Shown one piece after another: positions 1 through 4,459 of a stretch of DNA of 21,894 nt. Location of the stretch: positions 1-21,894 of the IMG/VR virus record IMGVR_UViG_2737471819_000029, one strand, 5' to 3'. How positions within the stretch are numbered: the stretch's first letter is position 1; each line of letters starts with the position of its first letter. Made by a program: the position numbers and the translations under genes. The notes beneath the pieces were generated by a model. The model ran no database searches. It had not been told where the DNA came from and saw nothing but the letters and a program-made list of their open reading frames with translations. Source of the DNA: a virus (lineage: Duplodnaviria; Heunggongvirae; Uroviricota; Caudoviricetes).

Positions 1-324
1 ATGAAGATGCCAGAAAAACATGACCTGTTAGCCGCTATTCTCGCGGCAAAGGAACAAGGCATCGGGGCAATCCTTGCGTTTGCAATGGCGTACCTTCGCG
101 GCAGATATAATGGCGGTGCGTTTACAAAAACAGTAATCGACGCAACGATGTGCGCCATTATCGCCTGGTTCATTCGTGACCTTCTCGACTTCGCCGGACT
201 AAGTAGCAATCTCGCTTATATAACGAGCGTGTTCATCGGCTACATCGGTACTGACTCGATAGGTTCGCTTATCAAACGCTTCGCTGCTAAAAAAGCCGGA
301 GTAGAAGATGGTGGAAATCAATAA
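1..324 (+). CDS. S: Class I holin, phage lambda S type (107 aa); Met1-Lys2-Met3 dual-start arrangement (antiholin S107 / holin S105)
   Basis: Translation [39 protein letters not shown]... matches lambda S as I recall it almost residue for residue; hydrophobic helices; immediately precedes the endolysin gene with overlap. Confidence 0.9.
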
Positions 325-784
325 TCAACGTAAGGCGTTCCTCGATATGCTGGCGTGGTCAGAGGGGACAGATAACGGACGTCAGAAAACCAGGAATCAT
401 GGTTATGACGTCATTGTTGGCGGAGAGCTATTCACTGATTACTCCGATCACCCTCGCAAACTTGTCACGCTAAACCCAAAACTCAAATCAACAGCAGCCG
501 GACGTTACCAGCTTCTTTCCCGTTGGTGGGATGCCTATCGTAAGCAGCTTGGCCTGAAAGACTTCTCTCCGAAAAGCCAGGACGCTGTGGCATTGCAACA
601 GATTAAAGAGCGTGGCGCTTTACCGATGATTGACCGCGGTGATATCCGTCAGGCAATCGACCGTTGCAGTAATATCTGGGCTTCACTGCCGGGGGCTGGT
701 TATGGTCAGTTCGAGCATAAGGCTGACAGCCTGATTGCAAAATTCAAAGAAGCGGGTGGGGCGGTCAGAGAGATTGAGGTATGA
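308..784 (+). CDS. R: Endolysin, lambda R-type lytic transglycosylase (158 aa)
   Basis: Translation [51 protein letters not shown]... matches lambda R from memory; start overlaps the end of S; same length as lambda R. Confidence 0.9.
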
Positions 785-1248
785 GCAGAGTAACCGCGAT
801 TATCTCCGCTCTGGTTATCTGCATCATCGTCTGCCTGTCATGGGCGGTTAATCATTACCGTGATAACGCCATTACCTATAAAGAACAGCGTGATAAAAAA
901 GTCAGTGAGCTGAAGCAGGCGAACGCCACCATTACTGACATGCAGCAGCGCCAGCGTGATGCTGATGCACTCGATGCTAAATATACGAAGGAGTTAGCTG
1001 ATGCGAAAGCTGAAAATGATGCTCTTCGGCGGAAGCTTGATAATGGTGGCAGGGTGCTCGTCAAAGGAAAATGCCCTGTGCCATCCTCAGACGAAACCTC
1101 CAGCGCCTCCGGCATGGGCAATGATGCCACCGTCGAACTCTCTCCAGTTGCTGGACGAAACGTTCTCGGTATCCGGGACGGAATTATCCGCGACCAAACA
1201 GCACTGAGAACGCTTCAGGAATACATCTGGACGCAATGCCTTCGATGA
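781..1248 (+). CDS. Rz: Inner-membrane spanin subunit (Rz-like): N-terminal TM helix plus coiled coil
   Basis: ATGA start overlap with R stop; N-terminal ~35 aa ([34 protein letters not shown]) and the [22 protein letters not shown] block match lambda Rz; C-terminal third is divergent. Confidence 0.85.
1001..1207 (+). CDS. Rz1: Outer-membrane spanin subunit (Rz1-like lipoprotein) embedded in the +1 frame of Rz
   Basis: ORF entirely inside Rz in another frame; begins MRKLKMML (lambda Rz1 begins MLKLKMML), has a lipobox-like LIMVAGC followed by a Pro-rich segment PPAPPAW (lambda Rz1 has PPPPPAW). Exact start uncertain. Confidence 0.7.
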
Positions 1249-1422
1249 TAGCGATAATTCTACTCATCATCCTTCACATCTGGCTCTGTAGACAGGGTGG
1301 TGATCACTTCTGGAGTGAATCCAGATTAAACATCTCATTGCTGATGCTTGATGTTGAGCATCTGGCGCGCGGTAAGGGGCTGCGTTGAGATAAGGGCCAG
1401 TCATCACAAACACCAGGATTTA

Positions 1423-1446
1423 GCCTCGCATTCGCGGGGCTTTTTT
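1423..1446 (+). terminator. Putative rho-independent terminator downstream of the lysis cassette
   Basis: GCCTCGC / GCGGGGC 7-bp stem (one G-U pair), ATTC loop, then TTTTTT at 1441-1446. Hand-folded only. Confidence 0.45.
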
Positions 1447-1593
1447 ATATCTGCAACAAACGCGCTTCACACGCGCGACTTCTGAACACAGAACCTTTCA
1501 GGATGACCCTTGAGGATGCCGGTTTGGTTATCGGTGCCTTTCTGTGGGCCGGAATCCTGTGTGACAAGGTTCATCACTAAAAGGTGAGCACTG

Positions 1594-2136
1594 ATGAATT
1601 ATCCAACTATCGTTAACGGCATCGATTTCCGAGAACTGATTTTTGTGGCAAACAACGATCCGGTTACAGATTCTTTTATGGTGGCAAAAGCATTTGGAAA
1701 GCTGCCGAAGAACGTGGTTCGTGACATTGAGCGAACCATAGAAGCTTGCCCTCCTGAGTTTGATACAAAGCTCAACTTTGAGCTTTGCTATAAAAACAAT
1801 GAGTTACAGAATGGTAAGCCGCAAAAATTCTACCGTCTCCGCAAGGATGGGTTGATGCTTTTGGTTATGTCCTACACCAAAAAAGAAGCAATGCGTATCA
1901 AAATTGCTTACATCAACGCATTCAACTGGATGTACGCCATGCTTCAGGTTGGTCATCGTCAATTTGAAGAAGAGAGAAATGCCGTAATGCTGGAGTACAT
2001 GAAAGAGAAGGATGTTGCCAGCATGTCAGGTCGCCTGCTTAATCGCTGGGGAAAAATTAAGAAGCCTCAGCTGCTGGCGAGAATTGAACGCCTTGAACAG
2101 CACGGGCAAACCGTAATCCCCGGACTCACCAATTAA
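1594..2136 (+). CDS. Rha-family phage regulatory protein (putative antirepressor-like), 180 aa
   Basis: Good SD (AAGGTGAG) 7 nt upstream of ATG; N-terminal segment ...AKAFGKLPKNVVRDIERTI resembles the conserved FGK-x-H-x-NV-(L/I)-RDI region of Rha (Phage_pRha) proteins as I recall it. Family assignment is from memory, not a search. Confidence 0.45.
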   Translation: MNYPTIVNGIDFRELIFVANNDPVTDSFMVAKAFGKLPKNVVRDIERTIEACPPEFDTKLNFELCYKNNELQNGKPQKFYRLRKDGLMLLVMSYTKKEAMRIKIAYINAFNWMYAMLQVGHRQFEEERNAVMLEYMKEKDVASMSGRLLNRWGKIKKPQLLARIERLEQHGQTVIPGLTN

Positions 2137-2364
2137 CGGCAGTACAGCGAAACAACCCAAGCCAGTAAGTGGGGGAATAACACTGGCAGCCACTGAAAGA
2201 TGAACCTCCTGCCTTATGGCAAAAAAAGATTCTTTGTGGTGGCGGACTGATGGAAAGACATCGGTTATTGCGGAGACCATTCAATGAGTGGTCTCGACAA
2301 TGGCTTATACCCTACACGGGATAACTTAACTGATATCCCTTTTAACGGATAAACGGAGCCAACA

Positions 2365-2607
2365 ATGGCAGAGATTATTCCCATGACTGAAGAACAGAAA
2401 TTCCAGTTAGAGATTTACAAACTGGTCATGAACCGGAACGCAGCCGCAGAAGAAGCATTTCAGTTCATTGGCACTGACGAGCTGAAGCTTGAGCTATTCA
2501 AAATTCACTTCCAGTCAGGTGGCGCTAATTCAGATATCACGACCCGAACTATCGAAGCGGTGCGTAAATCGAAGGAAGCGTTAGACCTGTTCACTACCGG
2601 AGCATAA
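2365..2607 (+). CDS. Hypothetical small acidic protein (80 aa) immediately upstream of the small terminase gene
   Basis: GGAG SD 7-8 nt upstream of ATG; compact spacing with the next gene (stop 2 nt before terS ATG); no recognisable motif. Confidence 0.5.
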   Translation: MAEIIPMTEEQKFQLEIYKLVMNRNAAAEEAFQFIGTDELKLELFKIHFQSGGANSDITTRTIEAVRKSKEALDLFTTGA

Positions 2608-2609
2608 AC

Positions 2610-3050
2610 ATGGCGCGCCCAACAAAGTATCAAGAGGCGTACGCCGAACAGGCACGCAAACTGTGCTTGCTGGGCTACACCGATGCAGAGCTTGCTGATT
2701 TCTTCGAAGTCAGTGAGTCAACTATTAACAAGTGGAAGCTTGATTATCCTGAGTTTTCGGAGTCCATAAAAAAGGGTAAGGCCGTCGCTGATGCAGAAGT
2801 TAGTGATCGTCTTTATCAACGCGCTATGGGCTTCGTGGCTCCAGACATCGATATTCGTGTTATTGAAAACAGAATTGTCGAAACTCCGCTTGAGAAGTAT
2901 TACCCGCCTGATACAACCGCCGCCATCTTCTGGCTTAAGAACCGACAGAAGGATAAATGGCGCGATAAGGTTGATCACGAGCTAACAGGCAAAGACGGCG
3001 GCGCAATCCAGATTGAAACATCACCGATGAGCACTCTATTCGGAAAATGA
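2610..3050 (+). CDS. Terminase small subunit (146 aa); C-terminal tail shared with Sf6-type TerS, N-terminal domain different
   Basis: C-terminus ...GKDGGAIQIETSPMSTLFGK matches the C-terminal tail I recall for Sf6 gp1; ATGA overlap with the large terminase start; N-terminal ~100 aa contain an HTH-like segment (TDAELADFFEVSESTINKWK). Confidence 0.8.
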   Translation: MARPTKYQEAYAEQARKLCLLGYTDAELADFFEVSESTINKWKLDYPEFSESIKKGKAVADAEVSDRLYQRAMGFVAPDIDIRVIENRIVETPLEKYYPPDTTAAIFWLKNRQKDKWRDKVDHELTGKDGGAIQIETSPMSTLFGK

Positions 3051-4459
3051 CCTCGATTAATCCTATCTTTGAACCGTTCATTGAGGCGCATCGCTATAAA
3101 GTCGCCAAAGGCGGTCGAGGTAGCGGTAAGTCATGGGCAATCGCGAGGTTGCTTGTTGAGGCGGCACGTCGGCAGCCTGTGCGTATTCTTTGCGCTCGTG
3201 AACTGCAAAACAGTATCAGCGATTCGGTAATCCGACTGCTTGAAGACACCATAGAGCGGGAAGGGTATTCGGCTGAGTTTGAAATTCAGCGTTCAATGAT
3301 TCGTCATCTCGGAACGAATGCTGAATTCATGTTCTACGGCATCAAAAACAACCCGACGAAGATTAAATCGCTCGAAGGCATTGATATCTGCTGGGTGGAA
3401 GAAGCGGAAGCGGTAACGAAGGAATCATGGGATATCCTGATACCAACCATCCGTAAGCCGTTCTCTGAAATATGGGTGAGCTTTAACCCGAAGAACATAC
3501 TCGACGATACCTATCAGCGATTCGTTGTAAATCCTCCCGATGATATTTGCCTGCTGACGGTGAACTACACCGACAACCCGCACTTTCCTGAAGTTCTCCG
3601 TCTGGAGATGGAAGAGTGCAAACGCAGAAATCCGACACTGTATCGTCACATCTGGCTTGGTGAGCCGGTAAGCGCAAGTGATATGGCAATCATCAAACGA
3701 GAATGGCTTGAAGCTGCAACCGATGCGCACAAGAAACTCGGATGGAAAGCGAAAGGCGCTGTTGTCTCTGCGCATGACCCATCAGATACAGGGCCAGATG
3801 CTAAAGGTTACGCATCGCGTCACGGTTCGGTAGTTAAGCGCATTGCCGAAGGTCTGCTGATGGACATCAACGAGGGTGCTGACTGGGCTACTTCGCTGGC
3901 GATTGAAGACGGCGCTGACCATTACCTGTGGGATGGTGATGGTGTTGGTGCCGGGCTACGCAGACAGACAACGGAAGCGTTCTCCGGTAAGAAAATCACC
4001 GCCACGATGTTCAAGGGCAGTGAATCGCCATTCGATGAAGATGCGCCGTATCAGGCCGGAGCATGGGCTGATGAAGTCGTACAGGGCGACAACGTTCGCA
4101 CTATTGGTGATGTGTTCCGCAATAAGCGAGCGCAATTCTATTACGCGCTGGCTGACAGGCTGTATCTGACATATCGGGCGGTTGTTTACGGTGAGTATGC
4201 AGACCCCGACGACATGCTGAGTTTCGACAAAGAAGCGATAGGCGAGAAGATGCTGGAGAAGCTGTTTGCAGAACTGACGCAGATTCAGCGCAAATTCAAT
4301 AACAACGGGAAGCTGGAGCTAATGACTAAGGTCGAAATGAAGCAGAAGCTCGGTATTCCATCTCCTAACCTGGCTGATGCGCTGATGATGTGTATGCATT
4401 GCCTGGCATTGGTCCGCGAAGAAACTGAAATATACGTTCCCTCATCCTCCGGTTGGTAA
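3047..4459 (+). CDS. Terminase large subunit (470 aa), P22/Sf6 family
   Basis: Walker A-like KGGRGSGKS near the N-terminus, 470 aa as in Sf6 gp2, position between terS and portal. Confidence 0.9.
   Translation: MTSINPIFEPFIEAHRYKVAKGGRGSGKSWAIARLLVEAARRQPVRILCARELQNSISDSVIRLLEDTIEREGYSAEFEIQRSMIRHLGTNAEFMFYGIKNNPTKIKSLEGIDICWVEEAEAVTKESWDILIPTIRKPFSEIWVSFNPKNILDDTYQRFVVNPPDDICLLTVNYTDNPHFPEVLRLEMEECKRRNPTLYRHIWLGEPVSASDMAIIKREWLEAATDAHKKLGWKAKGAVVSAHDPSDTGPDAKGYASRHGSVVKRIAEGLLMDINEGADWATSLAIEDGADHYLWDGDGVGAGLRRQTTEAFSGKKITATMFKGSESPFDEDAPYQAGAWADEVVQGDNVRTIGDVFRNKRAQFYYALADRLYLTYRAVVYGEYADPDDMLSFDKEAIGEKMLEKLFAELTQIQRKFNNNGKLELMTKVEMKQKLGIPSPNLADALMMCMHCLALVREETEIYVPSSSGW

Follow-up and report, generated by a model that had tools for sequence, protein, structure and literature searches.

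The gene at positions 1594–2136 of IMG/VR virus record IMGVR_UViG_2737471819_000029, of which we analyzed positions 1 to 21,894 (21,894 nt, hereafter the window), is the rha gene of a lambdoid or P22-like late operon. The gene is long known, widely annotated and ordinary, and as a near-identical copy in a textbook position it adds nothing new by itself. It is preceded by an intrinsic-terminator-like hairpin (T1) and by a conserved structured leader that ends at the rha start codon and is predicted to sequester the Shine–Dalgarno (SD) sequence. The only new point is that this combination of terminator and leader stands in front of all cargo types checked at this genomic slot, in phages and prophages across Enterobacterales and Gilliamella. 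We explain these features by a late, translationally throttled, DNA-binding Rha protein encoded in an exchangeable cassette, an explanation to which we assign a probability of about 60%.

The open reading frame (ORF) lies on the plus strand and encodes 180 aa plus a stop codon. ATG 1594 is its sole possible start, given an in-frame TGA at 1585–1587, and the equivalent methionine is the start in homologues of many genera. An earlier sequence-only reading of this DNA had proposed a 180-aa Rha-like protein, which was borne out by matches to Pfam Phage_pRha (PF09669, residues 25–113; E = 1.7e-21, 77 bits against a cut-off of 29.9), PHROG 518 'Rha-like transcriptional regulator' (E = 2.8e-81) and NCBIfam TIGR02681 phage_pRha (85 bits, cut-off 45.95). 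Because the curated thresholds of all three libraries were passed, we assigned the protein to the Rha family. The C-terminal part matched Pfam ORF11CD3 (PF10549, residues 125–176; E = 4.7e-26, 91.2 bits against a gathering cut-off of 25), and Rha is a two-domain protein of the 'Bro network'. A Pfam scan of the 180 aa at E up to 1 returned solely pRha and ORF11CD3; the KilAC/ANT domain (PF03374), for which the sequence-only reading had recommended such a search, was not found, nor were AntA and P22_AR. Since the ANT/KilAC domain is missing, the term 'antirepressor', which that reading had also offered as a family function, reflects an annotation habit here and not a supported function.

In AlphaFold models of moderate confidence (predicted local distance difference test, pLDDT, of 76.5 for the full-length protein and of 80.3 for residues 1–120), a small N-terminal alpha/beta domain precedes a long helical hairpin whose helices span residues 97–143 and 146–170. 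The pRha domain at the N-terminus may adopt a winged-helix-like fold. Foldseek against the PDB gave nothing below E = 0.1, with winged-helix regulators of the PadR and GntR types ranking top without significance, and a PDB sequence search gave E values above 0.3 only. Within ORF11CD3, the motif ERN..LE.MKEKDVASMSGRLL.RWG is nearly invariant from Escherichia to Providencia and Xenorhabdus (alignment A2), in which the N-terminal domain falls to about 55% identity. This near-invariance points to a putative surface for a conserved partner or for self-association. The nearest relatives of Rha share 97–99% identity; cluster P0002 ('Rha family transcriptional regulator [E. coli]', 705 member sequences) is 97% identical and a protein of a Stx2a phage 98.9%. 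Altogether 293 protein clusters were found at E below 1e-5, nearly all of about 180 aa with the same two domains and named 'Rha family transcriptional regulator' in their sources. Rha homologues were present in 550 phage records. Of 5426 complete E. coli genomes, 2768 contained some part of the stretch 1400–2364, and 218 contained at least 80% of it.

The SD sequence (AAAGGTGAG) is located at 1580–1588, 6–8 nt 5′ of the ATG. The sequence-only reading had credited the gene with a strong SD of its own, which is present but predicted to be sequestered in a conserved hairpin: in the basal helix 1, the anti-SD ACCTTT (1493–1498) would pair with AAAGGT (1580–1585) of the SD. When folded independently by minimum free energy (MFE), 33 of 33 sequences adopted the same hairpin architecture, with CCUUU pairing with AAAGG of the SD. 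A covariance model built from nine close relatives (R1) matched the window at 1491–1596 (E = 1.2e-6) and found matches 5′ of every rha homologue examined. Its match ended exactly at the ATG of phi80 rha, of the KilA-N genes of HK97 and HK022, of HK620 hkbK and of epsilon34 gp68, as well as of POCJ13 gp42 and gp45 and of a second phi80 gene (gp49). In the corresponding alignment (A9, 39 sequences) 95.3% of the cells were paired and 28 of 30 pairs showed compensatory changes, pairing counts that are inflated by the fitting of A9 to the R1 structure. As a control, the partners were slid by 1–3 columns, upon which pairing dropped to 34–55% and the covariation score from 0.59 to 0.04–0.14. Helix 1 itself (A9 columns 4–9 with 134–138) was paired in 94% of the cells, and four of its five pairs were compensatory. 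With this covarying SD/anti-SD helix, the element is, as judged from sequence comparison, a conserved SD-sequestering leader, and its effect on translation is a predicted one. No Rfam family matched the leader. Models of the C4/IsrK clan (RF01695, RF01394) gave no match at E up to 10 in 1400–1620 or at E up to 1 in 1–3200, and no gathering-level match in six related loci. A literature search found no paper describing the leader or connecting an RNA leader with Bro-network genes.

Some phages have the leader in duplicate, with either copy reaching the ATG of a gene of its own. In phi80 (locus L044) the copies precede rha and gp49, one of them lying at 45266–45354; in a Rosenbergiella prophage (L029; 2009–2114 and 2870–2979) they precede two pRha-type genes; and in POCJ13 (L043; 1186–1294 and 2558–2663) one precedes an Ant-like gene between the endolysin and Rz genes and the other rha. 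The leader also suggests corrected start codons. The annotated starts of P22 orf201 (L003, 39575, GTG, 201 aa), of the CUS-3 homologue (L002, 2776, 203 aa) and of phi80 rha (L044, 43739, 184 aa) all fall inside the leader hairpin; these annotations are probably 12–23 codons too long, the family start being the ATG equivalent to 1594. A 25-codon ORF without an SD of its own (1503–1580, plus strand; MTLEDAGLVIGAFLWAGILCDKVHH) spans the hairpin and stops on the SD. We rejected it as a leader peptide because its frame is not kept in L006, the closest leader subtype, and Sf101-type leaders lack the ATG.

A second, competing helix is predicted in the leader. This helix A would join the seven nucleotides immediately preceding the anti-SD to a complementary stretch at the 3′ end of the apical loop. 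In 19 of 20 distinct leader variants the same register allows a helix of 5 bp or more, represented by 17 different helix sequences (e.g., CCACCGA/TCGGTGG in P22, CCCGAG/CTCGGG in Sf101, GCATAGAG/CTCTATGC in locus L019 and CCAAGAGC/GCTCTTGG in HK022). Among 38 leaders, 29 had helix A in the MFE fold of their nascent 5′ half and none had it in the fold of the full leader; the two folds amounted to –9 to –26 kcal/mol and –33 to –52 kcal/mol, respectively. Since about 2 nt join helix A to helix 1 and the partner strand of helix A is some 30 pairs away, helix A and the full hairpin cannot coexist. The arrangement resembles the leader of the MS2 maturation-protein gene and hok mRNA, in which likewise an upstream complement pairs with the SD at equilibrium and a metastable pairing forms on the nascent RNA. 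Both are cases of translational control by delayed folding. There is no sequence relationship between these RNAs and the rha leader, for which the kinetic behavior is only predicted.

T1 consists of 8 pairs (6 of them G–C) and a 4-nt loop at 1422–1441, followed by TTTTT; a terminator-like hairpin upstream of the gene had also been noted in the sequence-only reading, correctly so. A scan of positions 1100–2700 yielded four terminator-like sites where 1.6 ± 1.4 were expected. This count alone does not exclude chance for T1; chance is excluded because T1 is conserved. Hairpins of this type were found in P22 and in 27 of the 30 diverse loci, mostly 150–200 nt upstream of the rha ATG and at most about 280 nt from it, and their stems vary yet stay complementary (AGCCTCGC/GCGGGGCT, AGCCCGGC/GCCGGGCT, AAGCCCATC/GATGGGCTT, AAACCGC/GCGGTTT and others). 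In this comparison T1 is conserved by structure and not by sequence, with covarying stems, and its G+C-rich stem–loop and U-run make it a predicted intrinsic terminator. A terminator is annotated at the equivalent position in the epsilon34 and phi80 records. At T1, Rfam returned only generic terminator ends of small RNA (sRNA) models, all below threshold, which we treated as generic. A match to the Xanthomonas sRNA asX2 (1421–1500, minus strand), covering T1 and a second small hairpin, reached 23.4 bits against a gathering cut-off of 70 (E = 0.011–0.16) and was dismissed as chance hairpin similarity. The second hairpin, between T1 and the leader, was flagged as a terminator-like site on the minus strand. 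It recurs at the equivalent position in most related loci, with altered stems (TGCC/GGCA in Gilliamella) and a rather conserved loop (TCACAC/TCGCA; alignment A6). A consensus scan found no sigma-70-like promoter on the plus strand in 1100–2700.

T1 is also the left boundary of the cassette common to phages of the Shiga toxin (Stx) type: a stretch from 1422–1434 to about 2353 is shared at 97% identity with the Stx-type phage POCJ13 and many E. coli prophages. Further boundaries lie inside this stretch. In 60-nt windows, identity to P22 DNA was 47–64% up to 1979 and 90–97% from 1980 to about 2280, a shift that coincides with the boundary of the two Rha domains. Compared with Sf101 and CUS-3, the coding sequence was 98–100% identical but the leader (1500–1559) only 40%, and these identities place a second recombination junction between leader and coding sequence. 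In contig L032, an rha allele of 47% identity sits between flanks 98–100% identical to the window. This 3.2-kb contig (JAEWTL010000066.1, 'MAG: Bacillota bacterium') matches the holin, endolysin, Rz, DUF2560 and terminase genes of the window and is almost certainly a wrongly binned fragment of an enterobacterial phage. The cassette is composed of swappable pieces, namely the terminator hairpin, the leader, the N-terminal domain, and the C-terminal domain with the downstream linker. Near-identical cassettes occur in podoviruses, HK97-like siphoviruses and Stx phages.

P22 rha (orf201, P22gp69) illustrates both the constancy and the exchange. As in the window, it follows Rz/Rz1 and precedes orf80 (DUF2560) and the small terminase gene 3; it has the same upstream terminator hairpin and leader architecture, and its product has the same two Pfam domains, with 55% identity overall and about 97% in the C-terminal 60 aa. 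It differs in its N-terminal domain, which is a different allele of only about 40% identity, in its leader subtype and in an extra insertion of about 600 bp before orf80. In phi80, whose rha is the founding member defined by genetics, the gene (pRha domain, E = 6e-31) comes directly after Rz with an annotated terminator upstream, and the R1 match (115 bits) runs up to what is probably the true ATG. The protein is only 35% identical and lacks ORF11CD3, and the packaging module (lambda-type cos) is unrelated. The same slot, terminator hairpin and leader up to the ATG were found with other occupants. HK620 hkbK (KilA-N+ORF11CD3) and POCJ13 gp42 (P22_AR_N+ORF11CD3) have the C-terminal domain in common with Rha, and the HK97 and HK022 KilA-N genes (KilA-N+P63C in HK97) and epsilon34 gp68 (a T5orf172/GIY-YIG nuclease) complete the series; these occupants have N-terminal domains other than that of Rha, namely KilA-N, P22_AR_N or T5orf172. 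All occupant types belong to the domain-shuffling 'Bro network' (PMC10111431).

The slot itself is conserved. The window comes from a Lederbergvirus, i.e., a P22-like phage or prophage, of E. coli/Shigella whose virion module is of the HK620/Sf6 type, and its rha gene lies, as the sequence-only reading had stated, between the lysis cassette (Rz/Rz1 on the 5′ side) and the packaging genes (DUF2560 and terminase genes on the 3′ side), in the same order as in P22 and phi80. We surveyed 35 loci of Enterobacterales and Orbales prophages, one genome per species, 30 of which had a complete gene and were examined. The ORFs just 5′ of rha chiefly encoded lysis proteins, with Rz (7 loci), phage lysozyme (6), GH19 endolysin (6) and M15 peptidases (3), plus holins and LysC; those just 3′ chiefly encoded terminases, with Terminase_2 (5), GP3_package (4), Terminase_3 (4), DUF1441 (2), DUF2280 (1) and GpA (1). 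The downstream terminases, small and large, thus came from several unrelated families. In a few of the 30 loci the rha homologue was found among tail genes instead. The region between lysis and packaging genes is the canonical rha slot and the gene no random insertion. Of the earlier description of rha as cargo, the exchangeable cassette stands; it is no unusual cargo, given the same slot in P22, phi80 and most of the 30 loci.

From these features the following course of events can be proposed. Apparently lacking a promoter of its own, rha would be transcribed only within the Q-antiterminated late transcript that reads through T1, and T1 would halt any polymerase that is not antiterminated. 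The leader of about 105 nt would then throttle translation, as its stable fold would bury the SD at the base of the long hairpin. Helix A would form first on the nascent RNA, before the full hairpin, and ribosomes could load only in a brief window after synthesis, or once some factor or an RNase opens the hairpin. In this way little protein would be made even though the operon is very strongly transcribed, and the dose of a potentially harmful DNA-binding protein would stay low. Rha would bind DNA via the pRha domain and use ORF11CD3 to dimerize or to contact a conserved partner.

Published data bear on several of these steps. Two papers place rha in the late operon and describe its product as harmful to lytic growth when the host lacks the protein IHF (integration host factor) (PMC4936722; PMC4541283), and the phi80 record carries the remark 'DNA synthesis inhibition in IHF- hosts'. 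According to phi80 and P22 genetics, as given in database records, excess or unbuffered Rha blocks phage DNA synthesis and growth without host IHF (PMC4936722). The P22-like prophage BTP1 has a single polycistronic late operon that comprises its lysis and structural genes, and only five of its genes (bstA, cI, pid and gtrAC) are highly expressed during lysogeny (PMC7067206); no highly expressed gene is listed for the rha region. A 2026 study of P22 described an abundant small RNA of 89 nt, P22F, which was validated by reverse transcription PCR (RT-PCR) in P22-infected cells, and the 3′ end of which lies 6 nt before the rha start; no function was given (PMC13397905). The P22F sequence overlaps the leader hairpin.

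Several points weigh against the proposal of a translationally throttled late Rha. Every functional step in it is drawn from sequence and prediction. Taken by itself, the leader of the window has no exceptional stability (z = –1.36; 17 of 200 shuffled sequences did equally well), and the case for it rests on covariation across relatives, where the fit of A9 to R1 has to be kept in mind. The loci being related, the shuffle statistics are not probabilities. Applied to the raw MAFFT alignment of the 33 upstream regions, RNAalifold gave zero pairs because indels misaligned the helices, and it was replaced by per-sequence folds and the covariance-model alignment. The promoter scan was confined to the sigma-70 consensus. 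The IHF consensus WATCAANNNNTTR had no occurrence with one mismatch or less in 283–1793, the nearest one-mismatch site being at 1794–1806, and its matches across the window were at chance level (27 observed, 26.4 expected). Finally, the reported ends of P22F do not match the base of the hairpin; these ends derive from small-RNA read pile-ups (PMC13397905). With regard to IHF, the consensus search neither supports nor excludes regulation. Henthorn and Friedman reportedly described, in 1995, IHF-binding consensus sites near the rha start.

The flank may provide a mutable handle on the expression of Bro-network proteins and hence on the 40-year-old Rha/IHF phenotype. A wider claim is that 1422–1596 represents an undescribed class of cis-regulatory RNA, a portable expression-control cassette placed before whichever Bro-network gene fills the slot and acting on late antiterminated transcripts by a two-state fold that would permit a brief burst of translation. 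We put forward this generalization tentatively, at somewhat less than even odds. If correct, it would explain how a growth-inhibitory protein can reside inside the most strongly transcribed operon of the phage, and it would give P22F a function.

Four other explanations were ranked below a throttled late Rha. The leader could be an RNase III-type processing site at which cleavage switches rha translation on or off, or the precursor of P22F as a trans-acting sRNA comparable to P1 c4 or Gifsy-1 IsrK, whose apical loop might, for instance, target the complementary 5′ flank in other transcripts; we consider this idea unlikely, though less so than the other three. The hairpin is long (about 30 pairs) and irregular, which also holds for RNase III sites of T7 mRNAs and of the lambda N leader. 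P22F builds up as a discrete species of about 89 nt, the complementarity between loop and flank could also act between two molecules, and structured RNAs control Bro-network genes in P1, P4 and Gifsy-1 (PMC10111431; PMC13397905). Like c4 (P1/P7), CI (P4) and IsrK (Gifsy-1), the rha leader is a structured RNA directly 5′ of a Bro-network gene and associated with a stable small RNA; unlike them, it is a single long SD-sequestering hairpin without a match to the Rfam C4/isrK models even at the most permissive threshold, and the P22F ends were taken from read pile-ups. Improbable, in our judgment, is that Rha inactivates a CI/C2-type repressor of the phage itself, of a co-resident prophage or of a satellite, as P22 Ant and P1 Ant1 do, so that a late copy would induce neighbors. 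Homologues are labeled 'anti-repressor' in several records, including P22 RefSeq, as are some of the matching PHROG families, and in other phages pRha is fused to ANT/KilAC (PMC9043618; PMC6145125). However, the protein at hand has no ANT/KilAC, AntA or P22_AR domain, and in Listeria AriS the activity resides in ANT/KilAC and not in the variable N-terminal domain (PMC9043618). Our literature search found no experiment showing such activity for a pRha+ORF11CD3 protein, and expression from the late operon follows the lysis–lysogeny decision.

Slightly more improbable again is a selfish element, i.e., a remnant or relative of homing-endonuclease-type genes that spreads among co-infecting phages and whose DNA-binding head is a leftover target-recognition module. 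The GIY-YIG (T5orf172) nuclease gene behind the same leader in epsilon34, the resemblance of Bro-network domains to homing-endonuclease modules (PMC10111431) and the nearly identical cassettes in podoviruses, siphoviruses and Stx phages would fit this idea. Yet Rha has no nuclease domain, ORF11CD3 is very strongly conserved in sequence across genera, the elaborate conserved translational leader argues for a selected function, and ordinary recombination at conserved flanks can explain the exchange. For a strict moron, independently transcribed, expressed in the lysogen and of benefit to it (by superinfection immunity or host regulation), we see hardly any room. Lambda bor and other morons are, like rha, dispensable and exchangeable cargo of the lysis-to-packaging region. 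The bor gene lies on the opposite strand, has its own promoter and is expressed in the lysogen. By contrast, rha is co-oriented with the late operon and its SD is predicted to be sequestered; a lysogen-expressed moron is unlikely because no sigma-70-like promoter was found. The likeness to bor drawn in the sequence-only reading therefore extends to the position only, with a strong terminator hairpin preceding the gene rather than trailing it. A sharply bounded, horizontally exchanged cassette and a weak terminator-like hairpin downstream (2318–2343) would suit a moron, but the position between lysis and terminase genes is kept across unrelated phage types, the region contributes none of the genes listed as highly expressed in the transcriptome of the BTP1 lysogen (PMC7067206), and Rha matched no PADLOC defense family.

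Coordinates of the features discussed, in positions of the window.
Feature	Position	Strand	Basis or remark
Holin gene	1–324		upstream of rha
Endolysin gene	308–784		upstream of rha
Rz gene	781–1248		upstream of rha
Rz1 gene	1001–1207		upstream of rha
T1, intrinsic-terminator-like hairpin AGCCTCGC-ATTC-GCGGGGCT plus T-run	1422–1447	+	scan, conservation
Second small G+C-rich hairpin CGCGC-TTCACAC-GCGCG	1461–1477	+	between T1 and leader
Helix A, 5′ strand CACAGAA	1487–1493	+	complementary to 1540–1546
Structured leader, one long irregular hairpin ending at the rha ATG	1491–1596	+	folds, covariance model R1
Helix A, 3′ strand TTCTGTG	1540–1546	+	3′ end of apical loop
rha coding sequence	1594–2136	+	ORF; Pfam, PHROG and NCBIfam matches
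Phage_pRha domain (residues 25–113)	1666–1932	+	putative winged-helix-like DNA-binding head
ORF11CD3 domain (residues 125–176)	1966–2121	+	part of predicted long helical hairpin
Recombination junction inside rha, at the boundary of the two domains	1975–1985	.	identity shift relative to P22 DNA
Non-coding linker between rha and the DUF2560 gene (228 bp)	2137–2364	+	96–99% identity in lambdoid phages
DUF2560 gene	2365–2607		downstream of rha
Small terminase gene	2610–3050		downstream of rha
Large terminase gene	3047–4459		downstream of rha; portal gene next

The linker behind rha, which many lambdoid phages of E. coli and Salmonella share, was found in 196 phage records at 96–99% identity whatever gene precedes it, among them the siphoviruses HK97, HK022, HK140 and mEp234 as well as CUS-3; in HK97 it follows the KilA-N gene, and P22 holds its first 175 nt. 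It overlaps the P22 small non-coding RNA P22G and folds better than shuffled sequence (z = –3.3). We rejected it as a widely conserved RNA: nhmmer found it only in closely related phages of E. coli and Salmonella and not in the more distant loci, as for a recently shared sequence. Its 3′ part is an insertion hot spot, which accommodates the extra bp of P22, a Gp49-family gene in some E. coli prophages and in phiKp_30, and in phage Huey a gene annotated as anti-CRISPR. Within the linker, positions 2273–2295 form a perfect 10-bp hairpin (GAGACCATTC-AAT-GAGTGGTCTC) with no T-run after it. P22 shows a compensatory double change here (2276 A>G together with 2292 T>C), and the G–U intermediate occurs in Sf101, which suggests an RNA structure rather than a DNA palindrome. 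The weak terminator-like hairpin just before the DUF2560 gene (GGGATA, a 10-nt loop, TATCCC and TTTT) has matches in the records of phage L and phage Ayreon that cover annotated terminators, and 2286–2353 is kept even in Stx2 phages without the rest of the linker.

At the other end of the region, a 50-aa ORF (1236–1388, plus strand) overlaps the Rz stop codon and encodes a hydrophobic N-terminus. The records of Sf101 (gp62) and epsilon34 (gp67, 'similar to Sf6 gene 65') list its product as a hypothetical protein; the ORF is 97–98% conserved in Sf101 and CUS-3, and is absent from P22 and HK97. Its product may be a small membrane protein that ends the lysis cassette.

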